DNA of 60,648 nt from a virus (lineage: Duplodnaviria; Caudoviricetes), in IMG/VR virus record IMGVR_UViG_3300038424_000095, positions 1-60,648 of that record; one strand, written 5' to 3'. Positions 5,548-56,694 of this stretch are shown here, piece after piece. Positions within the stretch are counted from its first letter, which is position 1; each line of letters starts with the position of its first letter. Below the pieces are notes generated by a model. It searched no databases and had not been told where the DNA came from. It saw only the letters and a list, made by a program, of their open reading frames with translations. A program made the translations under genes and the position numbers.

Positions 5548-6699
5548 ATGGCCGGAAGTATAAGATGTGTCGGCTGTCACTCCGGTATCGATGAGCGGTC
5601 CAATGGGATATGCCCGAAGTGCAAAAAAGCTAAGGGGTATGCCATTAATTTCTACTACGAAGGCCGACACCATCGAATCAGGCTCGGGTTGAATTGGACC
5701 GCAACCCGGGTGAAGCTTCGTTCCCTGCGTGCGTCGATAGATGAGGGGCGCTTTGATCCCGTTGAGTGGGGCCTTGTCGATCAGAGCCCGAACAGCCTGG
5801 GGCTTCGGCTGTCCGAGTGGTTTGATGAGGTCAAGGATGACACCGCCCTCACCGAAGGGACAAAGACTATGTACGCCACTCAGGTACGGCGCATACTCGG
5901 GAGCCCGCAAGCTACCGTGAATCTTCTTCGCCTGGACATCGAAGACTTCAGGGCGATGTTCAAAGCAATGCCCCTGAGAAACAGCACGAAGCAAACCACG
6001 AAAAAGGCGCTCAGAACGTTTTTAACATGGGCAAGGGGTAAAAGGTACATCCTCTACATCCCAGCTCTCCCACGGATAAGCAGCGACGATGCCAAGGCCA
6101 AATACATCCTCACGATGGAGCAACAACAAGCCGCGCTTGAACGCTTGCCGGAAGGACGAAGAGGATTGTACCAGCTCATGATGAACATTGGCGCGAGAGT
6201 TAGTGAGGTTCTGACGCTCCAGGTGTCCGACGTGAACTTTGCCCGAAAGGTGGTCATCCTTCAGAGAACGTGGAGTGGTGACACGATCAGGGAAACCACG
6301 AAGACCGGGAAACGTAGAACGCTGCCCCTGACTGATACCGCTTTGGAGATCCTCGCAGAAGCAATAGGGGACAAGATCGGGAACGCCTATATCTGGTCGA
6401 AGACTGACGGCACCCCTTACATAAGACAGGAGATTTACACCGAATGGATGAACAAGTCGGGCCTCGATGTCCCTCTGAAGGATGCGACAAGAAGGACGTT
6501 CGCTACACGACTGAGAAACGAGGGTACGCCCCTTGAGATCATCCAGGCTTTACTCGGGCACAAGAGCGTTAGGATGACGGAGAGATACCTTGACGATGAC
6601 GTGGAATGGGTGAGAACGGCGTTGAAGAAAGCCGATATAGTGAATATGGTACGAGCTCGTAACGAGGCAAACGCTAAGGATTCAGAGGAAGATGTCTAA
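5548..6699 (+). CDS. int: Tyrosine integrase with N-terminal Zn ribbon and arm-binding domain
   Basis: GARVSE, TKTGK, DATRRTFAT (variant of HxLR), LLGHKS...TERY catalytic signature; GGAGG RBS before ATG 5548. Confidence 0.93.
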   Translation: MAGSIRCVGCHSGIDERSNGICPKCKKAKGYAINFYYEGRHHRIRLGLNWTATRVKLRSLRASIDEGRFDPVEWGLVDQSPNSLGLRLSEWFDEVKDDTALTEGTKTMYATQVRRILGSPQATVNLLRLDIEDFRAMFKAMPLRNSTKQTTKKALRTFLTWARGKRYILYIPALPRISSDDAKAKYILTMEQQQAALERLPEGRRGLYQLMMNIGARVSEVLTLQVSDVNFARKVVILQRTWSGDTIRETTKTGKRRTLPLTDTALEILAEAIGDKIGNAYIWSKTDGTPYIRQEIYTEWMNKSGLDVPLKDATRRTFATRLRNEGTPLEIIQALLGHKSVRMTERYLDDDVEWVRTALKKADIVNMVRARNEANAKDSEEDV

Positions 6700-16314: not shown

Positions 16315-19300
16315 CTACATCGTTCTCAATATCTTCCGGTATTTTTCAATCTCGTCCTTTGTGAGCTCATTTTTCTCTACGGCATTGGAGAACTTATTGT
16401 AAAAGATAGGCTTGATCGCCTTCTTCTCTTCAGGTGTAGCCTTGTCTATCCCCGTAGCGAGCTGCTCGAGGGTGATCCTCTTGGCCGCAGCTACGGCAGG
16501 GGGCTCTTTCGCCTTCTCGTGGATACTCTCCATGTCGGAAGGAGTGAGTTTATGTTTCCGGATGGCCTGGCGGATCTGCGCGTTGGCCGTTGGGTCATTC
16601 TCCTTGACGGCCTGAGTGAGCTTGGACTTGAGCTTGCTCTTATCGGTCGAGGGGAATGATGGGCCCTCGAGGTTCTGGGCATACTTTTCAAAATCCGACA
16701 TGTATTTGTAGTTCGAGATACCCACCGATCCAAGAAGACCGTTGACGATCTTCCCGAGGGTGGTCTCGCCAGTGTTGCTCTTGAGAAGCCCCTGCCCCGG
16801 GATTGGGACCCACGATGAGAGGATGTCTTTCACGAGTTCCATCGTTCCCATCCGCTTCCCGTAGAAGTCCCTTCCGGTGGCAACCTCGACGAGTGGCCGA
16901 CCCCAGAGGGGATTGATCCGGTGATACCAGAAGCCCCGGGGGTCCGTCACGAGGTGCATCATATCGCCAACCACTGACCTTGGGGTGTACTCACGGCCGC
17001 CAACCATGACTGAGAAGGGCCTATTCCAGTGGGTCTTGTGGTCATCCCCGATGAGCATGTTCGTTACCTGTGCCGCTGTCGCCATGATGATCGCCCCGCG
17101 GAGAAGAGCCATGAACTGCTCCTTTCCCTTCGGTCTTGCGGCCTGGGCGAAGAACTTCAGGCGCGCCTCGAGGAAGTCAGGTGCAAGAAGTCCTATCCGG
17201 AGAACATCCTGCAGCGTGGGGTTCCTGCCGAGGTACTTGTAGTTGAGCTCACCGAAAGCGGCGTTTGCCTGCTTGGCCGCATTGTCGAGGAGCTGGTCAC
17301 GGGTGAACTTTCCCGAGGCCATGTCCTTCGCGTAATACTTCAGGGCCCGGCCTACGGCATGTTCGAACATGAGGGCCTTGAGGCGTGGGATGTAATCCTG
17401 AAAGAGCCACTCCTGATAGTGCTTAAGGGCATCCCCGACCAGAGGAATCCTGTTCCATAGACCGCCGGAAGCCATCCCTTCGGCGAATTCCTGCATGGCC
17501 TTCCCGCTGTAAAGCATGAGCCCGTGGTCGACGCCCTCGCGCAACAGAGGACGGGTGTCGAAGTCTATCTCGGGTGCCACAAAGGGGTTGACCTTATGAA
17601 AAACCGCGTGCTCCCCAAGGTGAAACTGATGGAAGGGCCCTATGAGGATCGTTCCCTTGATGAAGGCCCCACCATGGAGGGCCGTCCTGCCTGGCTGCCA
17701 GCCTCCGACCACTGGCACCTTCGCAGGGATTTCGAAGGTCTGGATCTTCGACTTTCCAAGAAGGGCATTAAGCCGGCCGAAGGCGTCCCGGTGAATTCTC
17801 ATGTTGCCCTGCATGAGAACGGGGTGTCCGTTCACGTCGTTGCCAAGCCATTTCCACTTGCGGAGGGCTGGATGGTCAAGAGGCCGATAAATCTCTCTGC
17901 CCTGATCGTCGTACCAGTCCTTGCCTTTTACATTCGGCTTGACTGCAAAGGCTGAATTGTCCCGTTCAACTATGTGGTCGCCAATGGAGGGGACCTTCTC
18001 GCCGAACATGGGCGTTGTCTTGTTTCCCTCTATGAATTTCTCGGCCTCGTCCTTCGAATCGAAGACCCTGAAGGCTCGGTCCTTGTCCCCGCGCATGACG
18101 GCGTAGGAGGTCTTCTGGATGGGTTCTCCCATGCCCCCGACCACTACCGTAGGTCTGCCGTCGGCCTCAGTGGATGCCATCAATTCCTTGAGGGCCTGGC
18201 GGGCCAGCATTGCTTCACGGATCGATCGCTCATGGGCGACCACTTGATAGCCTATCCTCTTGTCCGTGGGGTCATAGCCAAGCTTCTCGCCTTCGTGGTA
18301 ATTCGCCCATATCCGGTGAAGGGCTTCCCGGGGATTCGTCTTAAAGACCCCCGCATTAATCTGAGAGATAATCTTCTTCCCGGCCTTCTCCGGCTTGTCC
18401 TTCCACTGGTGTCGGACGTAGTTCTCGACATAGTCGATCTCGAGACCGGAATCGTTCGCGGCCTGCCAGGTATCCTGCATATCTTGGGAGCACTTTTCTG
18501 CCCAGGCGTGTTCTTCCGGGGTGAGCTTCATTGCATCAAGGTAGCCTTGTTTGTAAGGCGCCTTGGAATCATCGGCCCAGGCCTGAAGGGTGGCGTTGTC
18601 CCCGCCAGCTTCGATGTAGTTGCTGATGGCCACCTGCCTCTTCTCGGGGATCTCCGCATTGATCTGCTTGGCCAGCTTTGTGAGTTGCCATTCAAGGCGC
18701 TGGAGAGCTCCGGTGTATCGCCCGATGATGCGCTTACTTTCCGTGCTAACCGGAGGTTTCTTGTAGGCTTCCTTGAGGTCGTTGAGTGCCGTCTTGACCG
18801 GTTCGATGACAGGGGAGAAGAAGGTTTTTGGTCTCTCCGGTCCCTTCTCCGCCTCACGCTCTTTCCCGATATTGTCGAGGAAGTCCTGGAGGAGAGGAGG
18901 AAGGTCCTTGTCTTTGAGGACCACCTCGCCGCGCTCATTGGCGAGAGGGGATTCTGCATAGGCTTTCTTGGCTGCCTCGAATACCTTCTTCATTGAGAAC
19001 ATGAACCGTTTGTAGAGGTCCCCGAGGACTTCCTTCATCCGGTCCAGGAAGTCTTTCCAGGTCCTGGCCCCTTCCTGGTAGACGTGGGTGGCAATCTTTT
19101 CGAGGTGCGGATAGGCGGCCTTTGCGTCGTTACCTGCCTCCTTGATCGCATCAAGGCTCTCCTGGATGCTGAAACGGGGCTGCCCCTTATAGAGGACATC
19201 CTGCTTCATGGAGGGGGTGATATCGAGGGAGTGGACGGCAGTGAGTTTTTTCTCAGGTACGCCTTCCGCGACTTCAAGACCCAATATCTCGGCGAGGTCT

Positions 19301-22300
19301 TGGCTTCCATCTTCGTTCATCGCTTCGATGAGAGACTTGCCCCGGTCCATGACATGAAGAACCGATTCCGACGCGCGAGTAATTGCCACGCGTTCTATGG
19401 AGTACATGAGCTTTTCGCCAGTAATCGGACTAACCTTCGTGTTCCCGTATCCCCTGGAGAGCTTGTAGACTTTCTCCAAATCCTCTCGGGTCACTTCGGG
19501 GCGTCCAGTCATATCGGAGGTATCGTGATAGGTGACGGGTGCCCACCCTTCTGACGTGTCGACCTTCGTCTCCCCGACCTTCGCTCCCCACTGTTTGGCA
19601 TACTTGTTCATGAAGGCAGGGAGCATGGTATCGTAGAAGCCCTTCATGCCCTCGCCGCCGACTTTTAGGTCGAGACCGGAAAGGGATTTCAGCTTCATCC
19701 CGTCTTCGTCCATAACGGACTTGCCTTCACTGGCGGCTATCTTGTCGGCTATTTCCTTGCCGAAGAGGTCGGAGACTCTCTTGATGTCGACATTGTCCTC
19801 GTGGAGAACCACGTCGCCGTCTTTTATTGCTCTTACCCAATACTGATCATCCCCGTAGTCGTCGTACTGAATTCTGTCGATTTGCTTGGAGAGATCATAC
19901 CGTTCTGCCTGCTGCTCGCCTGTTGTGAAGGCTATCCGATCATACCCATTCTCCGAGGCCCAGCGTAGCATCCGCTTCATGACGAGTTCCGGCCAGGTCT
20001 TTGAGAAGGGGGCGGGGGGGACAGTCTGTGCGGCATAAAGATTATTTCCCGTCTGCTCTACATTCTCCCGTTTTGGCCCAGAGGCATAGAGATGGCCTTC
20101 TTCATCTAGGGCCATGAACATTTTGGTTCCTATCGGGCGTCCGCTTATCTCTGCAGCCTCTTCGCTATCAATGGTGTACTCTTCTATTCTGAGTGGCTTT
20201 GTGTAGCCCTTCTTCTTGCCCTCCTGGTGCCAGTCGCTCTGCACTTCTTCGATGAAGAGGACTTTCTTACCGTCAGCGTCTACCCGATCATTGAAACGGA
20301 CGTGGGCCAGGACGTTGGGTTCGTCCCAATGAGGTGAGGCGTACTTGCCTTCATAAATGTTACTTTTCTGAAGCCTTCCCTGTTCTGCCCATAGTCTCTG
20401 TTCCTCTGCGCCTACTTCTGATGCGGGTAGATTTCGAATCTCTTCTAGTCTTGCCCTTATTTCAGTGAGACGGCCCTCCTTGCTCTTTACGCCGGTGTCT
20501 TCTTTGCTTGGCAGCGTAAACAGCATCTCCCGGTAGTTCTCGCCCATGGGAAGGGTGTAGGCGGAAAACTTGGTGGGCGACTGCTTTGTTTCGTTCCTAT
20601 CCTCGTAAGCCGCCCTCAATTCTTTTGCCAAAGGCTCTAACGTACTGCTGAGTTCGTTTGGTGTCCTATCTCCTCTTGCGATGTCTAGGGCGGTATCGCG
20701 CGCTCCGCTATCTGTAAAATGCTCATTCTGGGCTTGCCTAATGAAAGCCTGTTCTGCTTTTTGGAGTCGTTCCTGTCCTTCTCCCCCCTTCACCACTTCC
20801 TTCATCTGCACCTGGTTCTCTTTGAGGAAGTCCGCGATCTCGCCCTTCGTGACCTTGCCCGTCCTGCCATCAAGCCAAGGAACCAGTCCCGACCACTTCA
20901 GTTCGTCCGCCTTGTACTCGCCCTTGTTCGCCCACGATTCAATGAGGGTTCGATAGCTCTCGGGCGTGCCCGTGCCGGGGAGCTTGGCGTCGAGGACTCG
21001 GGACATTTTGGAGTAGAAGGTGGGAGCGATGTCCTTCGCACCTGCGTTAAACACAGGCGGTCCTTTTGATCCCGTCCTGCCACCTGTCTTCTTGTATTCA
21101 ATGAGAGCCTTGTCTACCGCGCTCTTTACGGCTTTTGGATCGGTGGTCATGCTTTCAAGTTCACGACCGGCAGCGAACTGAGCTATCAAATCGCCCATGA
21201 CTCTTGTTCTCTGCGATTCCAACATACCAGTGCCTTCGTAGTCCGCCTGGAGTTTTTTCTTATAGATGTCGAGGTTTCTAAGATAGGGCTTTACTTCTTC
21301 CAAAAGTGGTTCATAAATGTCCGGCCTGCTATGTTGTAGAGTATGCATGATCTCATGCTGTGCCGTTGCCGCGACATCACGGGCGTTAGTGTTGAGATAG
21401 AGGACTGTCGGTTCTTGAGGAAGAGTGAATCCGCCTATCTTTATGGCCGATTCCGAGCCATCGAAAAAGTATGCATCAATGCCGTACGATTTCGCATCGG
21501 TAGCTATTTTTCGGTGTTCTGCGGTGAGTTCGACGGGGATTTTGACGTGATCCTGGACGAATCCCTCAAGATGCGTCCCCAAAATCTCCTGGACTTTTTT
21601 GATTGCAGAGCTGTATCGTTCGGATAGTAACGTATTCCGCTCTGTGACGTCAGGCAGATTATTCTCGGTTCTTCCTTCATTACCCTCCTCCTCTATACTG
21701 AATGTTGGCGGTTCCTTGCGTCTCGGCTTCAGCCTCTCCCCTATCTGTTCGGCGGTCTGCTTCTCCTCTCCGAGAGCAAGGCGGCCACCTCTGACTTCTG
21801 GTTCGCTAAAGGTAAGTTGGTGGATAGGCTGGTTGCCGGCGAGAACTTGCTTGACTTCTTCTTCTGATTTTGATACTCTTTCTTTGTTATGCCTAATCTC
21901 CTTTGTAGTACTTGTGGAACCGTAATTAACCGCGCCCCGTGCTTGATCAGAGGAAGCAAGACTGGATTCTTCTTCTGTTCCCGGTTGTGCAAAACTACTT
22001 TTTTCAACCACAAGATCAGGATGGATTGCCTCACTTGCGGCAAGGGGTTCTACGTTTCTCCCTCTACCCTCGATAATGGAAGAGGGAGGTTCTGTAGTAA
22101 AACCTGCTATGCGATTAATCAAGCTACTGGCCGTATTAATTCCAAGGGATACCGTTTTATCAGGGTTGACGGTAAGAGCGTTGCCGAGCACAGAATCGTC
22201 ATGGAACGTCATCTTGGTAGGCGACTTCACAGAAGTGAGGTGATCCACCACATTGACGGGAACAGACTCAATAACGAAATCTCTAACCTTCGGATCATGA

Positions 22301-24771
22301 AGTGCATTGATCACAGCGCCCATCATAATTCGTTGGCTTGGGACATCGAGACCGCCAAAGCCCTTTTGAAGGAAGGTGCTACTTTGCGAGAGGTCTCTGA
22401 TGTTCTGCACGTCTGCGGGACCAGTATTGGAGCTGCCTTGAGACGTAGAGGCGTTACCCTCCGTCTCTTGAGAGGATACAAGCGCACTAGCGGGTAGCTT
22501 CGCCTCTGAGGGGCCGCCAGTCGTTTTTTGGGGTGTGGTGGGGATGGTAGGCTTAGGGGCACCCGCCGGCTCCTCTTCCGCTGGCTTCTGGCTGGCCTCC
22601 TTTATGCCTGCTTCGATTGGAGCCGTGGGTTCCCCTAAAGGCTGCATGGCAGGAGTCAACGGGGCCATCCCGAGGGGTGCCATCGGAGCCTCCACCGGCA
22701 CCGTCAACGGCAGTTCCGCTATCCGGTCGATGATCTCCTTGTTGGCGACATCGGGCGGGAGCCCCTTGCTTCCCACGTCCGCGATGATAGCCTCTGGTGA
22801 GCTGTTCCTAATAGCCTCGTGGGCCTGGATGAACTGGTCGAGGGCGGTAACGGATGGAGCATGAGCCTGGGGACTCGCGGCGTACTGGTCGCGTACTGCC
22901 CGGATATGATCTAGGGTAGTCTCCCCTCTTTCAAGCCCCCTGGTGGCTTGGTCAAAGAATGAAGGGGGAAGAGGGGTGCCGCCCACCGCTGAAGGACCGG
23001 CAGCCGGAGAAGGAGGAGTCGCGGGAGGCGGGCCCTCTTCCGAAGTTGGTCTGGTTTCTGGCATTCCTGGTGTCTGTCTCGGATATGTCGAAACGCCTTC
23101 AACCGCCCCCTTAAGTTCGAAGGGAACAACCTTAGGCTGTCCTGCCGCTGCAACCTGAGTGTCGCTGTAAGGTGGAACGTGAATGGCACTCTTTATCTTT
23201 CTCCACCAGGGACGGTCGGCCACCGTAACGGCCTTTTCAACGGGCATCTCTATCCATGTACCGCCGATGAGGTCTTGGCGCATCTGTGGGCCTGAGCGTC
23301 CAAGTGCCCCGTAGAGTTCTTTTTCTTCGGCGGTAGCCTCTTGTCCGGCCCCGAGGATGTCGTGAATCTTGGCGGGGTCAAGAAATACTCTCCGAGGCAT
23401 GTTGTACTGCTCGAAGGTCTTTGTCGTTGCGGCTTCAAAGGCTTTCTGCGATCCTCCATGCACCTTGCCAGCCGCCCATATCTGACCCATGAAGTCAACG
23501 GCATCAAGGACCGAAGCCTGCCATCCCTCGGCATCATTGATGTCAGCAAGACCACGGCCTCCTCCAAAAGTGTAGGGCTTGCCGCTGATCTTAGATGCGG
23601 CGAAGTTCTCAGCTTCTGCGGCGCCCATGAAGGTCCCAAAACCAGCCGCACCCTTCAGGACATCCTTTGCCATCTGAATCTTCGAGGGAGCACCACCGAG
23701 AATCTCTTTCGCTATGCCGGATCTTGCCAAGTCAAATGCTGTGTTCACTGCACCGGCCGCTTCCTCCGCCGACATACCTGCCTGGACTATGCCGGCCCCT
23801 TCCCGGGCCGCTCCTGCCAAAGCTGAAATACCAGTTCCTGCGCCATATATAGCCGCTGTCGGTGCCATGAGAGGCAGCCAGAACGCCATCATGTACGGGT
23901 TGTTTATGATCTCTTTCCCCGTGGGCGTACCGCGGAGTCCGAGTTGCTTGGTGATCGCGTCGAAGTTGTCATAGATAGCATCAGAGGGGACCTGGACATG
24001 GTTAGCCTGGAGAATCTTCGAGACTTCTGCCGCCCTGTCAGCAACCGGCCAGGAAGGTTCTGCCCCTTTAGATACATAGAGATTGAAAGAGTTCACATCA
24101 TCGTGGTATTGCTTGGCCTTCTGATTAAAGGTCTCTACCTTTGTGTTGAAGGCATCTACCGATGTCTGAGAAGTCCTGTCTACCTTCTCCTGAGATGCTT
24201 TGAGGTCATCGTAAAGAGCCTGGACCTGCTTGCCCTGAATCTCAAGGGTATTACTTTTGGCGGAGAGGTCTTTCCCCCTTGCGAGAAACTCTCCTTCTCT
24301 GGGTGTCGCCTCAGGTGCTTCTGGCGCCCTCATGGTAAAAGGCACTCTCGCCATGTCCACATGCTCTGCGGGGTGCGCGAGTTCCTCCACTATTCGGTGA
24401 TCTGGAGGAGGAGCATTCGCCTCTTCTTCGAAGCGGTGTGCGATGTTGAGGGCAGCCTGAGCTTTCACAGGATCAGGATGGTGAACGACAGTCCCTATAC
24501 TTGGCTTTCCTAACCAGTCCGTTGTGATGAAAGGCTTCATAGTGCTGATTACATCAGGTTCAGGTTGACCGAGGCGGGCCGGGCGGACAGCAGCAAGTTC
24601 CTCTTCGGTAGCGGCAGGAGGAAGGGCTATTTTGACCGGAGCCTTGACGACAGGCGGTTTCTCTGCCGCCGCGAACTCCTCGTCGCTTATGACCCTGAAG
24701 CCCTTACTGACAGGTTGCTCTTGCTTCTGCGCCTGTTCAATCTCGTCATCGCTGATTACAACGTAGGGCAT
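16315..24771 (-). CDS. Giant 2818-aa polyvalent internal virion/ejection protein
   Basis: Last gene of the ejection module; HEIMH zincin motif; conserved phage domain AHVRFNDR...LFIEEVQSDWHQ...GYDRIAFT...GFYD; helical C-terminal region. Confidence 0.85.
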   Translation of the reverse strand: MPYVVISDDEIEQAQKQEQPVSKGFRVISDEEFAAAEKPPVVKAPVKIALPPAATEEELAAVRPARLGQPEPDVISTMKPFITTDWLGKPSIGTVVHHPDPVKAQAALNIAHRFEEEANAPPPDHRIVEELAHPAEHVDMARVPFTMRAPEAPEATPREGEFLARGKDLSAKSNTLEIQGKQVQALYDDLKASQEKVDRTSQTSVDAFNTKVETFNQKAKQYHDDVNSFNLYVSKGAEPSWPVADRAAEVSKILQANHVQVPSDAIYDNFDAITKQLGLRGTPTGKEIINNPYMMAFWLPLMAPTAAIYGAGTGISALAGAAREGAGIVQAGMSAEEAAGAVNTAFDLARSGIAKEILGGAPSKIQMAKDVLKGAAGFGTFMGAAEAENFAASKISGKPYTFGGGRGLADINDAEGWQASVLDAVDFMGQIWAAGKVHGGSQKAFEAATTKTFEQYNMPRRVFLDPAKIHDILGAGQEATAEEKELYGALGRSGPQMRQDLIGGTWIEMPVEKAVTVADRPWWRKIKSAIHVPPYSDTQVAAAGQPKVVPFELKGAVEGVSTYPRQTPGMPETRPTSEEGPPPATPPSPAAGPSAVGGTPLPPSFFDQATRGLERGETTLDHIRAVRDQYAASPQAHAPSVTALDQFIQAHEAIRNSSPEAIIADVGSKGLPPDVANKEIIDRIAELPLTVPVEAPMAPLGMAPLTPAMQPLGEPTAPIEAGIKEASQKPAEEEPAGAPKPTIPTTPQKTTGGPSEAKLPASALVSSQETEGNASTSQGSSNTGPADVQNIRDLSQSSTFLQKGFGGLDVPSQRIMMGAVINALHDPKVRDFVIESVPVNVVDHLTSVKSPTKMTFHDDSVLGNALTVNPDKTVSLGINTASSLINRIAGFTTEPPSSIIEGRGRNVEPLAASEAIHPDLVVEKSSFAQPGTEEESSLASSDQARGAVNYGSTSTTKEIRHNKERVSKSEEEVKQVLAGNQPIHQLTFSEPEVRGGRLALGEEKQTAEQIGERLKPRRKEPPTFSIEEEGNEGRTENNLPDVTERNTLLSERYSSAIKKVQEILGTHLEGFVQDHVKIPVELTAEHRKIATDAKSYGIDAYFFDGSESAIKIGGFTLPQEPTVLYLNTNARDVAATAQHEIMHTLQHSRPDIYEPLLEEVKPYLRNLDIYKKKLQADYEGTGMLESQRTRVMGDLIAQFAAGRELESMTTDPKAVKSAVDKALIEYKKTGGRTGSKGPPVFNAGAKDIAPTFYSKMSRVLDAKLPGTGTPESYRTLIESWANKGEYKADELKWSGLVPWLDGRTGKVTKGEIADFLKENQVQMKEVVKGGEGQERLQKAEQAFIRQAQNEHFTDSGARDTALDIARGDRTPNELSSTLEPLAKELRAAYEDRNETKQSPTKFSAYTLPMGENYREMLFTLPSKEDTGVKSKEGRLTEIRARLEEIRNLPASEVGAEEQRLWAEQGRLQKSNIYEGKYASPHWDEPNVLAHVRFNDRVDADGKKVLFIEEVQSDWHQEGKKKGYTKPLRIEEYTIDSEEAAEISGRPIGTKMFMALDEEGHLYASGPKRENVEQTGNNLYAAQTVPPAPFSKTWPELVMKRMLRWASENGYDRIAFTTGEQQAERYDLSKQIDRIQYDDYGDDQYWVRAIKDGDVVLHEDNVDIKRVSDLFGKEIADKIAASEGKSVMDEDGMKLKSLSGLDLKVGGEGMKGFYDTMLPAFMNKYAKQWGAKVGETKVDTSEGWAPVTYHDTSDMTGRPEVTREDLEKVYKLSRGYGNTKVSPITGEKLMYSIERVAITRASESVLHVMDRGKSLIEAMNEDGSQDLAEILGLEVAEGVPEKKLTAVHSLDITPSMKQDVLYKGQPRFSIQESLDAIKEAGNDAKAAYPHLEKIATHVYQEGARTWKDFLDRMKEVLGDLYKRFMFSMKKVFEAAKKAYAESPLANERGEVVLKDKDLPPLLQDFLDNIGKEREAEKGPERPKTFFSPVIEPVKTALNDLKEAYKKPPVSTESKRIIGRYTGALQRLEWQLTKLAKQINAEIPEKRQVAISNYIEAGGDNATLQAWADDSKAPYKQGYLDAMKLTPEEHAWAEKCSQDMQDTWQAANDSGLEIDYVENYVRHQWKDKPEKAGKKIISQINAGVFKTNPREALHRIWANYHEGEKLGYDPTDKRIGYQVVAHERSIREAMLARQALKELMASTEADGRPTVVVGGMGEPIQKTSYAVMRGDKDRAFRVFDSKDEAEKFIEGNKTTPMFGEKVPSIGDHIVERDNSAFAVKPNVKGKDWYDDQGREIYRPLDHPALRKWKWLGNDVNGHPVLMQGNMRIHRDAFGRLNALLGKSKIQTFEIPAKVPVVGGWQPGRTALHGGAFIKGTILIGPFHQFHLGEHAVFHKVNPFVAPEIDFDTRPLLREGVDHGLMLYSGKAMQEFAEGMASGGLWNRIPLVGDALKHYQEWLFQDYIPRLKALMFEHAVGRALKYYAKDMASGKFTRDQLLDNAAKQANAAFGELNYKYLGRNPTLQDVLRIGLLAPDFLEARLKFFAQAARPKGKEQFMALLRGAIIMATAAQVTNMLIGDDHKTHWNRPFSVMVGGREYTPRSVVGDMMHLVTDPRGFWYHRINPLWGRPLVEVATGRDFYGKRMGTMELVKDILSSWVPIPGQGLLKSNTGETTLGKIVNGLLGSVGISNYKYMSDFEKYAQNLEGPSFPSTDKSKLKSKLTQAVKENDPTANAQIRQAIRKHKLTPSDMESIHEKAKEPPAVAAAKRITLEQLATGIDKATPEEKKAIKPIFYNKFSNAVEKNELTKDEIEKYRKILRTM
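21889..22497 (+). CDS. HNH endonuclease with two Cys4 Zn modules and C-terminal HTH, nested antisense within the giant gene
   Basis: CSTCG...FCSRLC, CLTCGK...FCSKTC, KGYRFI...AEHRIVMERHLGRRL..SEVIHHIDGNRLNNEISNL, TLREVSDVLHVCGTSI. Confidence 0.85.
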   Translation: MPNLLCSTCGTVINRAPCLIRGSKTGFFFCSRLCKTTFFNHKIRMDCLTCGKGFYVSPSTLDNGRGRFCSKTCYAINQATGRINSKGYRFIRVDGKSVAEHRIVMERHLGRRLHRSEVIHHIDGNRLNNEISNLRIMKCIDHSAHHNSLAWDIETAKALLKEGATLREVSDVLHVCGTSIGAALRRRGVTLRLLRGYKRTSG

Positions 24772-25637
24772 TATGGCTCCCTAAAGGACCATGAAACGCA
24801 ATTGCAAAGGCCGCCCATCATAGAAAGATACCGACAGTCGATCATCACCACAGCATGATTTGGGAAGAGGTTGTCGACTATCTGTCTCGCTCTTGCATCC
24901 TTCGGCAATCCAAAAGCCGGAAGAAGAATCACGTTTTCAGTTTGTAGCCAGTTGCAGAAATACCCCCATCCAGGAGAGTACGCATCCGCGTCTGGCCAAA
25001 TCTGTCTAAAGGCCGCCTCTGGCATGTCCCAGTCCCATGAGTCAAAAGCGTACGTGAAACGAAACGTGTTGAAATTGGCCTTCTCAAGGGTCTTTTCGAG
25101 GTCTCGCTGATATTTCCTGAAGCGATCATCCTTGTCGAAAACGCAAGAGTAGTCATTCACGATGAGCGTATTGTGGTTCACAAATCGGCAAATGCCGTCG
25201 CTGTGCCCGAGTTCATCGCCGGGTTCCACAGGAATGAGGATCACTGGACATCCGAGGGCTTGTTCAAGAGCTTCTTGGGATCCAGCGCCGTTGTCATGGA
25301 TGAACTTCTCGGTAACGATTGCCTTGCCATATCCCATGACGCAGTTGCCGCCATCGAGAATCAATGGAGACTCCAGAAGGTTGGGCACCCACCGCCAGCA
25401 TTCCTCGGCAACCTTGAGTTGAGGCCATCTATCCCAGTCGTTTGGTGTCTTGGCATACTGAAACTTCACGAAATGATCCCCTACCTGAACCGGCATGTAG
25501 TCTCTTGACCAAACATTTCGAGTTCCGTTGAACGTGCGCACCTTCACGCCATAGGCTTCAAGGTTAAGTTTGGCAGCCCAGAACACGTCCTTATGGTTGT
25601 GAGCGAACCATTCGTTGAAGTAAACGACGTCTTTCAT
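24771..25637 (-). CDS. Agmatine deiminase / peptidyl-arginine deiminase family protein
   Basis: WSRDYMP, LDGGN, GHSDGICRF, YFCNWL, GGLCNCVS (Asp/His/Cys residues present). Confidence 0.88.
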   Translation of the reverse strand: MKDVVYFNEWFAHNHKDVFWAAKLNLEAYGVKVRTFNGTRNVWSRDYMPVQVGDHFVKFQYAKTPNDWDRWPQLKVAEECWRWVPNLLESPLILDGGNCVMGYGKAIVTEKFIHDNGAGSQEALEQALGCPVILIPVEPGDELGHSDGICRFVNHNTLIVNDYSCVFDKDDRFRKYQRDLEKTLEKANFNTFRFTYAFDSWDWDMPEAAFRQIWPDADAYSPGWGYFCNWLQTENVILLPAFGLPKDARARQIVDNLFPNHAVVMIDCRYLSMMGGLCNCVSWSFREP

Positions 25638-55859: not shown

Positions 55860-56158
55860 CCCTTCTTCCTCTCCTTCCACCTCACTGAGCTCGCCCGCCT
55901 CTGCCTTTTCAGGACGACCATACTGCACGGCGAACAGTACTTTTGGTTCCCGCTGATAGGGTGGTAGGGCTTATGGCACTCGTCGCAGGACCTGGTCTGG
56001 TTCATAGGGCGCTTGCCTTTGGGGGGCTTGTGGTTGGCGGGATCGTCGGCCTCGGGCTTGCGCACGATGATAAGCCCACAGCAATGCAGCCACAACTCGT
56101 CCTTCGATGCGTCGATGCGCTCAGAAACAAGGGGAGTTGTGCAATGGGGGCAATTCAT
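55856..56158 (-). CDS. Zn-finger protein
   Basis: CPHC, CDEC...QKYCSPC. Confidence 0.65.
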   Translation of the reverse strand: MNCPHCTTPLVSERIDASKDELWLHCCGLIIVRKPEADDPANHKPPKGKRPMNQTRSCDECHKPYHPISGNQKYCSPCSMVVLKRQRRASSVRWKERKKG

Positions 56159-56694
56159 TTTTTTGGCCTCACAAACCCTAGTTTCAATCGCCGTTTGTAC
56201 CGTCTACCCCTTTCTGTATCTCTTTTTGTCAAGCAGAGTCGGCTTCCGCATGTCTTCGGCGCCGTGCCGTGTTGTCGAGGATTAATTAAGAATTCCACGC
56301 CGCACGATGTGCAGATGCCAATCATGGATTTTCGCGTAGGGACGCAGGCAAAATGCCGATATACTATCTGTTCCGGCAGTTGGTACGTTGTCATGTTTTC
56401 AGGATCGTCCCAGGCCTTACAGACCGAGCACCGCTTCTTGCGAGGATCGCCCGTCGCAGCATAAGACTTCTGCCTGGTATGAAGAAGCATGTGATATTCG
56501 TGGTCTTCGCAAATTACAAGTGGGCCGCCGTTCAGACCGCCATCTGCATGATGGACCGGAGCTTTTGCGGGCAACGGTTTACCGAGAGCTTTCTCTGCCA
56601 CAGCCCTATGAAGATTGACATTCTTTCCATTGACTCTCGCTTGCTTATAGGTTTTGCCATTGTATGGCTTTACGAAGGCAAGTTTTTTATCCAT
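56155..56694 (-). CDS. HNH endonuclease with C-terminal Zn modules
   Basis: LHRAVAEKALGKPLP...VHHADG...LVICEDHEYHMLLH; CSVC, CTSC. Confidence 0.8.
   Translation of the reverse strand: MDKKLAFVKPYNGKTYKQARVNGKNVNLHRAVAEKALGKPLPAKAPVHHADGGLNGGPLVICEDHEYHMLLHTRQKSYAATGDPRKKRCSVCKAWDDPENMTTYQLPEQIVYRHFACVPTRKSMIGICTSCGVEFLINPRQHGTAPKTCGSRLCLTKRDTERGRRYKRRLKLGFVRPKK

Follow-up and report, generated by a model that had tools for sequence, protein, structure and literature searches.

How can an endonuclease gene persist inside a giant phage gene without interrupting it? This question is raised by a window of 60,648 nucleotides (the whole stretch of DNA that was analysed, positions 1 to 60,648 of the IMG/VR record IMGVR_UViG_3300038424_000095, Caudoviricetes). 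A sequence-only reading of this window had noticed a complete HNH endonuclease gene nested antisense within a 2818-aa ORF that has no stop across it. It had inferred that a homing endonuclease invaded a likely essential gene without intron or intein by being readable as a tolerated linker on the other strand, which would be an unusual parasitic strategy. The observation itself was confirmed. Its core interpretation is supported by comparative evidence, because the same arrangement was found in 22 further distinct metagenomic viral loci, whereas the essentiality of the host gene and a clean insertion at this particular site are not supported or still open, the promoter is weak, and homing activity, transcription and translation are untested.

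The nested gene and its host reading frame

The locus consists of the following features:

21889..22497, + strand: intact HNH_3 endonuclease gene (202 aa, start ATG, stop TAG) with two N-terminal Cys4 modules, an HNH core (about aa 96-146) and a C-terminal helix-turn-helix-like part (about aa 152-195).
21889..22497, - strand: the same triplets read in the giant frame (giant aa 759-961), a stop-free, polar peptide that is poor in aromatic residues and Cys, mostly of low predicted order, and in this view an inserted spacer.
16315..24771, - strand: giant 2818-aa ORF of the mosaic polyvalent protein type that hosts the insert, with a conserved domain at about aa 1230-1500 shared with thousands of giant proteins.
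21851..21877, + strand: promoter-like TTGACT, 15 nt, GATACT, ending 11 nt before the ATG and not followed by an SD.
22498..22674, - strand: Pro/Ala/Thr-rich linker of the giant (about aa 700-758; …PMAPLGMAPLTPAMQPLGEPTAPIEAG…EPAGAPKPTIPTTPQKTTGGPSEAK), directly upstream of the insert in the reading direction of the giant.

The HNH ORF matches Pfam HNH_3 (PF13392) at residues 101-138 with 39.8 bits against a cut-off of 24.8 (E 3.4e-10), and 16 of the 18 PHROG families matched are annotated as HNH endonuclease (best E 1.1e-15). Two CxxC...CxxxC modules are read directly from the sequence (C6/C9/C30/C34 and C47/C50/C69/C73). The residues H120, H121, N129, N133, H142 and H146, the catalytic H and N residues among them, are invariant in an alignment of 9 nested copies. 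The C-terminal helical DNA-binding part matches phrog_664 at residues 152-191 (E 1.7e-4) and is helical in an AF2 model (helices 153-195), which has a mean pLDDT of 81.8 with the core above 90. Whether the core adopts the beta-beta-alpha metal finger fold is left undecided by the model, since residues 100-140 have a pLDDT of 88-94 but the best PDB match, I-HmuI of phage SPO1 (1u3e), was obtained only at Foldseek E 0.042, prob 0.92 and TM 0.26-0.30. A PDB sequence search with an alignment of the HNH frame (A3) returned 4 matches, none of them a homing endonuclease. Over 21850-22450, GC dips to 0.44-0.50 and AT skew flips.

The two frames use the same triplets, so that the HNH codons TTA, CTA and TCA would read as stops in the giant frame. 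None of the 19 Leu codons is TTA or CTA and none of the 15 Ser codons is TCA, which has a chance of 0.017 by the codon usage of the phage or 0.030 by that of the giant gene. AF2 prediction of giant aa 756-964 gave a mean pLDDT of 47.8, with 145 of 209 residues below 50. However, helices at segment residues 30-81 reach block means of 73-84, so that this part may be more than spacer. No Rfam family matched at E<=1 within positions 20500-24000 of the window, nor at gathering score in 12 nested loci, and no Pfam family, Hint included, matched the host-frame segment at E<=1. Thus, neither a ribozyme core of a group I or II intron nor the splicing domain of an intein was detected.

The giant ORF has 4519 matching proteins at E<=0.001, and its relatives carry LPD38, LPD22, ART-PolyVal and similar Pfam families (PF18857, PF18834, PF18760, PF18823 and others). 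No credible Pfam family is found in the giant itself, and its only family match is phrog_7348 at aa 1483-1633, which does not settle whether it is a polyvalent protein in the strict sense of several LPD or effector domains in one polypeptide. Nothing in the analysis shows that the gene is essential. A megablast search of the giant gene against GenBank phages returned no match, and neither did searches for related loci in viral contigs with the giant protein and with two further proteins (P0115 and P0151). Among 10 neighbouring ORFs, only two PHROG families of unknown function were matched.

The promoter-like site is weak and is regarded as inference only. It is not listed by a consensus scan, which accepts spacers of 16-18, and any transcript would have almost no leader. 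Its position is shared with two relatives, the nested loci L012 and L014, which have TTGCTT...GATATT and TTGCTT...GCTATC, respectively, at the aligned position, followed by a roughly 24-nt leader with GGAGG. The window copy lacks both the SD and the conserved upstream extended -10 of its nearest relatives and may be poorly expressed or on the way to decay. In contrast, GGAGG-like SD sequences lie 6-9 nt before the ATG in 6 of 9 non-duplicate nested loci.

Recurrence, stop avoidance and composition of the host-frame peptide

BLASTP relatives of the giant-frame segment were found in 16 of 204 proteins of a local set consisting of 193 relatives of the giant and 11 small HNH proteins, and they sit at very different positions in those proteins. 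A search for longer protein relatives of the segment, which covered only 367-2000 aa, found none. A first alignment (A1) was too diverse for a locus scan, so a 4-row alignment (A2) was used instead; genome contigs scanned with A2 yielded no relative. All 9 DNA loci found with the giant-frame alignment show an open giant ORF (1125 to over 3299 aa, some cut by locus ends) with an intact antisense HNH ORF, although L014 and L015 are near-duplicates and loci found in this way are biased towards open frames. A scan with the HNH-frame alignment A3 does not depend on the antisense frame. Among its 80 best loci, 15, including 11 of the 13 best hits, have an antisense open frame of 640-3292 aa around the HNH. 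All 15 are in register, and none is in either of the other two antisense frames. As these 80 loci are the best matches to a profile built from nested copies, 15 of 80 is not a population frequency. Searches with tblastn of the host-frame segment against GenBank phages and PLSDB plasmids gave no match, and therefore no cultured example of the antisense form was found. On the HNH tree nested copies cluster: 22 of 24 lie in one set of 29 rows with an SH-aLRT of 96, and the tree needs 7 changes against 21.3 in shuffles (0 of 500 as low).

TTA, CTA and TCA codons are absent from all 10 nested ORFs tested, with a per-locus chance of 0.39 to 5e-5 and a product over the 9 non-duplicates of 2e-16; the underlying codon null models are simple, as they use host codon usage and assume independent codons. 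Antisense stops are absent from every nested copy, while free-standing relatives carry 1-12; 11 of the 65 non-nested relatives, however, also have no antisense stop within the matched part. The latter lie in ordinary gene contexts and are taken as chance. Free-standing members of the same clade carry 18 such codons in 763 codons, which gives about 0.008 for none in 202 codons.

Compared with synonymous resampling, nested copies encode a host-frame peptide that is poor in W/F/Y/C (mean z -3.65) and rich in polar residues (mean z +3.29; n=20), with values of -2.78 (aromatic/Cys) and +3.98 (polar) for the window copy. In a control, 14 nested copies gave z values of -3.25 and +3.16, whereas 45 free-standing relatives gave +1.62 and 0.0 (Mann-Whitney p 2.7e-7 and 3.2e-6). 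The HNH frame is the better conserved frame in 6 of 6 pairs. An estimate of dN/dS in both frames, which had been proposed for this locus, was not attempted because nested copies are only 36-46% identical, so that synonymous sites are saturated, and near-identical cluster members were available only as proteins. From codon choice, conservation and peptide composition, both frames appear to be under selection.

Insertion contexts

An alignment of giant-protein homologs had been suggested in advance as a way to reveal a clean insertion of about 200 aa, and clean insertions are indeed visible at the level of the family. The relatives P0093 and P0132 carry the segment between AHVRFNDR and LFIEExQSDW, locus L051 carries it just after that motif, and locus L024 carries it after KWLGL, while the giant of the window is uninterrupted at all three places. 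For the site in the window itself, no insert-free relative was found: all 4 members of the 90% cluster of the giant carry the insert, and no other relative spans the site with matching spacing. The protein P0059 matches both flanks, but with 554 aa between them against 273 aa in the window. Only 2 locus pairs share an insertion context, a variety that fits poorly with strict site-specific homing. L004 also holds a decayed second copy, in which the HNH frame has stops and the N-terminus is lost, yet the giant frame is still open.

Stranded RNA evidence had likewise been named as a test, but the 10 sequencing runs listed are all peat-metagenome DNA kept as contigs, with no RNA among them. Comparison of 4 of these runs with positions 20000-24800 showed no joint, no indel and no insert-free form. 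In one run (X4) contigs end at 21891/21916 and at 22535/22543, close to the HNH borders; contigs break at several other places too and gaps prove nothing, so no conclusion is drawn from this.

Interpretation and related systems

The arrangement is best explained, with fairly high confidence, by a mobile HNH endonuclease cassette inserted in the giant polyvalent-type gene in the opposite orientation, with its codons in register with those of the host. In this register the HNH start ATG reads as His in the host frame and the HNH stop as Leu or Ser. The only HNH codons that would stop the host are TTA, CTA and TCA, each of which has synonyms, and the HNH protein can therefore be kept unchanged while the host ORF stays open. 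The host ribosome would then read about 200 extra residues as a mostly disordered, polar spacer between domains of a beads-on-a-string protein, and the endonuclease would be made from its own antisense transcript. The anatomy, its recurrence, the conservation of the HNH, the avoidance of stops and the tuning of synonymous sites towards a benign host-frame peptide are demonstrated by the present data. That both products are made, and that the enzyme cuts insert-free DNA and so spreads the cassette, is inferred, since RNA, ribosome and peptide data were lacking and neither cleavage nor copy-in by repair was assayed. It is possible, though rated somewhat less likely than not, that a whole lineage of ambigrammatic endonuclease cassettes is specialised for living inside giant polyvalent genes. 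Such a cassette would be a bare HNH ORF with a short upstream region, written so that its reverse complement is a stop-free, polar spacer poor in aromatic residues and Cys, and could land in many in-frame positions of mosaic genes without killing them, a third way beside introns and inteins. Decayed copies would stay behind as linkers, and by cutting and repairing these genes the cassettes may help to shuffle the domains of polyvalent proteins.

Three other explanations were considered and appear unlikely, the first two of them very much so. The HNH might be an ordinary gene lying between two genes that were joined by a gene-calling artefact, the open frame being a coincidence. Long antisense ORFs are common in this 55% GC genome (for example, a 340-aa + strand ORF at 17974..18996 inside the giant), 11 of the 65 non-nested relatives also have no antisense stop within the matched part, and the probability for the window copy alone is just 0.017-0.03. 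Against this stand the recurrence in 22 other distinct loci, always in register, the tuned composition of the host-frame peptide, and inserts inside a conserved domain, which two separate genes would break; with no stop upstream, any continuous mRNA would be read through regardless. Removal of the insert by an unrecognised RNA or protein splicing activity would make the inserts inside a conserved domain (P0093, P0132, L051) easiest to tolerate, and antisense endonuclease genes are known inside nuclear rDNA group I introns (PMC9548176). However, besides the missing Rfam and Pfam matches, the extra segment in P0093 is about 165 aa, roughly the HNH ORF alone, which leaves no room for a ribozyme core, and an RNA-spliced segment has no need of an open frame or a tuned peptide composition, yet both are observed.

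Domestication, either of the host-frame segment as a working domain of polyvalent proteins or of the HNH for a phage function such as DNA processing or competition between phages, without further movement, is suggested by the deep, clade-wide association, by the partly helical prediction and by the persistence of decayed copies as open host sequence. A second HNH-derived segment lies in the hosts of L004 and L022, and host-frame motifs such as GFxGLDxPxQR and IPVDVVDNL are conserved. These motifs, however, are the reverse complements of the most conserved HNH motifs, with IPVDVVDNL corresponding to (E)VIHHIDGN, the HNH frame is always the better conserved one, most of the host-frame segment is predicted with low confidence, and insertion contexts differ from locus to locus.

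Selfish endonuclease genes are thought to survive inside genes only with the help of a self-splicing intron or an intein, and otherwise to sit between genes; a same-strand, out-of-frame form was added in 2025 (see below). The antisense, codon-aligned form is a cleaner solution, as the three codons to avoid all have synonyms and the enzyme pays no cost at the protein level. It would also be one of the few cases of long antisense dual coding in DNA phages supported by selection on both frames. In practice, gene callers miss these endonucleases, and the exact protein is absent from a collection of about 15 billion sequences. Part of the apparent domain content of giant phage proteins is the reverse reading of an HNH gene, and linkers of polyvalent proteins may partly descend from such inserts.

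The free-standing, intron-borne and intein-borne homing endonucleases of phages, including I-HmuI, share with the nested gene an HNH core with a C-terminal helical DNA-binding part, a patchy distribution among homologous host genes and insertion within phage genes. Known forms spare the host gene by sitting between genes, by RNA splicing or by protein splicing, while this one spares it by being translatable on the other strand; its activity and target are unknown. In ambigrammatic narnaviruses (PMC8316113), a long reverse-strand ORF is kept open in the codon-aligned (-0) frame by avoiding exactly UUA, CUA and UCA. Those are RNA viruses in which the reverse ORF spans nearly the whole RdRp gene and has no recognisable fold, whereas here a DNA cassette of roughly 600 nt carries a known enzyme on one strand and host spacer on the other, and there is no homology between the two systems. 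Polyvalent proteins of phages and conjugative elements (Iyer et al. 2017, PMC5512222) resemble the host gene as giant multi-domain mosaics, but the main text of that paper does not mention homing, introns, inteins, opposite strands or linkers and has only one unrelated mention of HNH.

The closest known case is the hidden HNH of the ShiLan domain (Arsenault et al. 2025, PMC11855218), which belongs to the same HNH_3 group. In both cases, an HNH gene with zinc-finger modules is inserted in a host ORF without a stop across it, no intron or intein signature is found, the host-frame product is poorly ordered and the HNH-frame product well ordered, and the RBS and the route of translation are not clear. 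In the ShiLan case, however, the HNH lies on the same strand in the third frame of a DNA methylase gene and would be translated from the mRNA of the host gene, whereas here it lies on the opposite strand in register, the hosts are giant mosaic polyvalent-type proteins and a separate antisense transcript is needed. The element is therefore a variant of the ShiLan type and not a member of it as described. The words antisense, reverse, opposite strand, complement and polyvalent do not occur in the main text of that paper, and no description of an antisense-nested endonuclease in a protein-coding ORF was found in the literature searched, which did not extend to subscription journals or supplements, so that the antisense form in giant polyvalent-type genes appears undescribed. 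The HNH of the window is homologous to that of phage ShiLan (36% identity over aa 42-146, E 7e-14), and the same-strand arrangement was seen again here in phages Bipolar and Cr-LKS3 and in 6 metagenomic loci.

The nested HNH gene and its relatives

The viral genome analyzed here is a whole IMG/VR virus record of 60,648 bp with an estimated completeness of 88%, and DNA matching it occurs in peat metagenomes. Genes run on the - strand from about 8.3 to 56.7 kb, and within this block only one convincing + strand gene was found. The features considered here are the following:

21889..22497 (+), HNH endonuclease gene encoding 202 aa
16315..24771 (-), giant ORF encoding 2818 aa, which runs straight through the HNH gene
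56155..56694 (-), second, free-standing HNH-like ORF encoding 179 aa

The 202-aa protein has two CxxC...CxxxC modules, an HNH core, and a helical C-terminus. It matches Pfam HNH_3 above the curated cut-off (E 3.4e-10) as well as 16 PHROG families annotated as HNH endonuclease (best E 1.1e-15). Both frames use the same triplets, so that each HNH codon is the reverse complement of a giant codon and the HNH ORF equals giant aa 759-961. Over the insert, GC falls to 0.44-0.50 and the AT skew flips. Thus, the arrangement described in the sequence-only reading, a complete HNH gene lying antisense within a giant ORF that stays open across it, is confirmed as written. The exact 202-aa protein is absent from a collection of about 15 billion predicted proteins although the giant is present. 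Gene callers that forbid full overlap hide this class of endonuclease. The second HNH-like ORF is weakly related to the nested one (E 4.8e-7 over aa 83-145) and, unlike the nested gene, has 2 antisense stop-equivalent codons.

In this register, only the HNH codons TTA, CTA, and TCA would stop the giant. None of the 19 Leu and 15 Ser codons of the HNH gene is one of these three, for which the chance is 0.017 by the codon usage of the phage and 0.030 by that of the giant itself. On its own this is no more than suggestive. Antisense ORFs of 200-340 aa occur elsewhere in this genome. The picture changes when relatives are considered. Searches with giant aa 301-1500 showed that the giant belongs to the mosaic giant proteins of phages, whose members related to it carry LPD38, LPD22, ART-PolyVal, and similar Pfam families, the polyvalent protein class of Iyer et al. 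2017, while no Pfam family was found in the giant itself. One protein hit, P0115, matched precisely the segment that is antisense to the HNH gene. In a subsequent BLASTP search of this segment against a local set of 204 proteins, consisting of 193 relatives of the giant and 11 small HNH proteins, 16 giants were found to contain the segment at positions ranging from aa 272 to aa 3885. Their most conserved motif, IPVDVVDNL, is the reverse complement of (E)VIHHIDGN, the heart of the HNH motif.

A scan with a 4-row alignment of the giant-frame segment returned 3 viral and 6 metagenomic loci, of which L014 and L015 are near-duplicates. All 9 show a giant open frame of 1125 to over 3299 aa from stop to stop, some of them cut by locus ends, and all 9 hold an intact HNH ORF on the other strand, in register and mostly beginning with MP...CxxC. 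One of these loci, L004, also holds a second, antisense-HNH-derived segment in the same giant ORF at about 6001-6435, in which the HNH frame has stops and has lost its N-terminal Cys4 part while the giant frame is still open. This looks like a decayed cassette kept as host sequence. A second segment of this origin was also seen in the host ORF of the nested locus L022 (aa 867-991), here only as a BLAST match.

As this search favors open frames, an alignment of the 9 HNH proteins was built and used to scan viral contigs in the HNH frame, where 505 of the 597 stretches examined encode a relative. Among the 80 best loci, 15 lie inside an antisense open frame of 640-3292 aa, including 11 of the 13 best hits. 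All 15 are in register and none is in either of the other two antisense frames. Of the remaining 65 loci, 54 have 1-12 antisense stops in the matched part, whereas the other 11 have none and sit in ordinary gene contexts. Including the locus analyzed here and after removal of duplicates, 23 distinct nested loci are known from these scans. With the insert masked, 21 of 22 host ORFs match the local set of relatives of the giant.

Evidence for selection in both frames and against splicing

Several lines of evidence suggest that the HNH frame is under selection. The catalytic His and Asn residues are invariant in the alignment of the 9 HNH proteins, and the HNH frame is better conserved than the giant frame in 6 of 6 pairs. 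In 6 of the 9 non-duplicate loci in which stop avoidance was tested, a GGAGG-like SD lies 6-9 nt before the ATG, and copies without an ATG have GTG or TTG at the right place. The AF2 model of the HNH protein has a mean pLDDT of 81.8 from only 9 sequences.

The giant frame also looks selected. There are no stop-equivalent codons in any of the 10 nested ORFs tested, and the product of the per-locus probabilities over the 9 non-duplicates is 2e-16, subject to the ascertainment bias of the search towards open frames. In contrast, the free-standing members of the same clade carry 18 such codons in 763 codons. To examine the composition of the giant-frame peptide, synonymous codons were resampled from host usage and the resulting peptides were compared with the real one. 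The real peptide is poor in W/F/Y/C, with 2-6% observed against 3-21% expected (mean z -3.65), and rich in polar and small residues (mean z +3.29; n=20). In a control on the loci from the HNH-frame scan of viral contigs, 14 nested copies give z -3.25 and +3.16, while 45 free-standing relatives give +1.62 and 0.0 (Mann-Whitney p 2.7e-7 and 3.2e-6). The nested copy of the phage analyzed here shows this tuning, too (z -2.78 and +3.98). RNA and protein evidence is lacking for this element, for which no RNA run is listed. The giant-frame segment has a mean pLDDT of 47.8 with 145 of 209 residues below 50, but four helices at segment residues 30-81 have block means of 73-84.

No Rfam family matches at E<=1 within positions 20500-24000, none matches at gathering score in 12 nested loci, and no Pfam family was found in the giant-frame segment. 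No signature of an intron or an intein was found. In P0093, a giant relative containing the segment, the extra segment is about 165 aa, which is roughly the size of an HNH ORF alone. In addition, an untranslated or RNA-spliced segment would not be expected to show the tuning of the peptide composition. The core of the interpretation offered in the sequence-only reading, in which an endonuclease gene invaded the giant gene without intron or intein by being readable as a tolerated linker on the other strand, is supported and extends to a family of elements, while its suggestion that the giant gene is likely essential is unsupported.

Insertion sites and upstream signals

An alignment of giant-protein homologs had been proposed beforehand as a way to reveal a clean insertion, and clean insertions are visible in homologous domains of other giants. 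The giant of the phage analyzed here carries PNVLAHVRFNDR-VDADGKKV-LFIEEVQSDWHQ without interruption. The giant relatives P0093 and P0132 carry the segment between NDR and LFIEE. In the nested locus L051 it lies just after EEIQSDW, and the BLAST match of L051 to the giant is split, with 249 aa in the host against 71 aa in the giant of the phage analyzed here. In the nested locus L024 the segment follows KWLGL. For the giant itself, however, no insert-free allele was found. All 4 members of its 90% cluster carry the insert, and no joined form appeared in 4 metagenome runs. Two protein cluster members, P0049 and P0050, are encoded on a contig of 19,958 bp, on which the same giant is called as two proteins of 1839 and 964 aa. 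The break is near aa 1839-1855, far from the HNH insert, and could be a frameshift, a stop variant, or an assembly error.

Among the 23 nested loci, only L029/L068 and L012/L014 share the same flank at the same offset. In other pairs the same host domain lies on opposite sides of the insert, and the flanks of the insert analyzed here match no other locus. In L014, a giant-frame peptide ending in SSIISEYPDL ends just before the insert, and one ending in KEKVLAEYPDL follows about 25 aa after it. P0115 and L012 have the same ILDxIxQxTGKSKxxVLxDYPDL stretch after their inserts. This could be a duplicated target or a flank that travels with the cassette. On the HNH tree, 22 of 24 nested rows fall in one set of 29 rows with SH-aLRT 96, and nestedness needs 7 changes against 21.3 in shuffles (0 of 500 as low), although the tree came from a quick search and many inner forks are unsupported. 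Thus, the association is old and clade-wide, and the cassettes have reached many sites, a variety that fits strict single-site homing poorly.

The nested loci L003, L013, and L016, which are the nearest relatives of the copy analyzed here, share a TGnTAnAAT-like extended -10 about 80 nt upstream as well as an SD. The copy analyzed here and those of L012 and L014 share a proximal TTGnnT...GATACT/GATATT/GCTATC element. The former lacks about 24 nt that carry the SD in the other two, which leaves 11 nt between the -10-like hexamer and the ATG. The promoter-like element proposed in the sequence-only reading is thus positionally conserved in two relatives, but it fails a standard consensus scan, and its role is inferred only. 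L012 and L014 do possess the SD that is missing here.

Related arrangements

The closest precedent is the ShiLan domain (PMC11855218, 2025), an HNH gene hidden in the third frame, on the same strand, of an insertion in mycobacteriophage DNA methylase genes, which has no stops in the host frame and no intron or intein signature. The HNH protein analyzed here is homologous to that of ShiLan, but its gene lies on the opposite strand and in register with the host codons. The main text of that paper never uses the terms antisense, reverse, opposite strand, complement, or polyvalent. Literature searches found no antisense-nested endonuclease in a protein-coding ORF, and no cultured example was found among GenBank phages and PLSDB plasmids. 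Avoidance of UUA, CUA, and UCA to keep a codon-aligned reverse frame open is known from ambigrammatic narnaviruses (PMC8316113), and antisense endonuclease genes are known inside nuclear rDNA group I introns (PMC9548176).

The published same-strand arrangement was also seen here among relatives of the same HNH, which lie in another frame of a larger ORF that stays open. These were found in two cultured phages, Cylindrospermopsis phage Cr-LKS3 (L010, OM373202.1 39044-40894) and Mycobacterium phage Bipolar (L011, NC_028823.1 46390-48396), where the hosts are annotated as DNA methylases, and in 6 metagenomic loci. The hosts are ORFs of 554-753 aa in L056, L062, L064, and L089, and a 2124-aa ORF in L073/L074 that has no match in the local protein set and is not a methylase by any test applied. 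A further HNH homolog, annotated as hypothetical, was found in Streptococcus phage Javan616 (L006, MK448993.1 37187-37813) between two CDS that are both annotated as lysin (N-acetylmuramoyl-L-alanine amidase). A split lysin gene of this kind suggests an intron or a gene in pieces.
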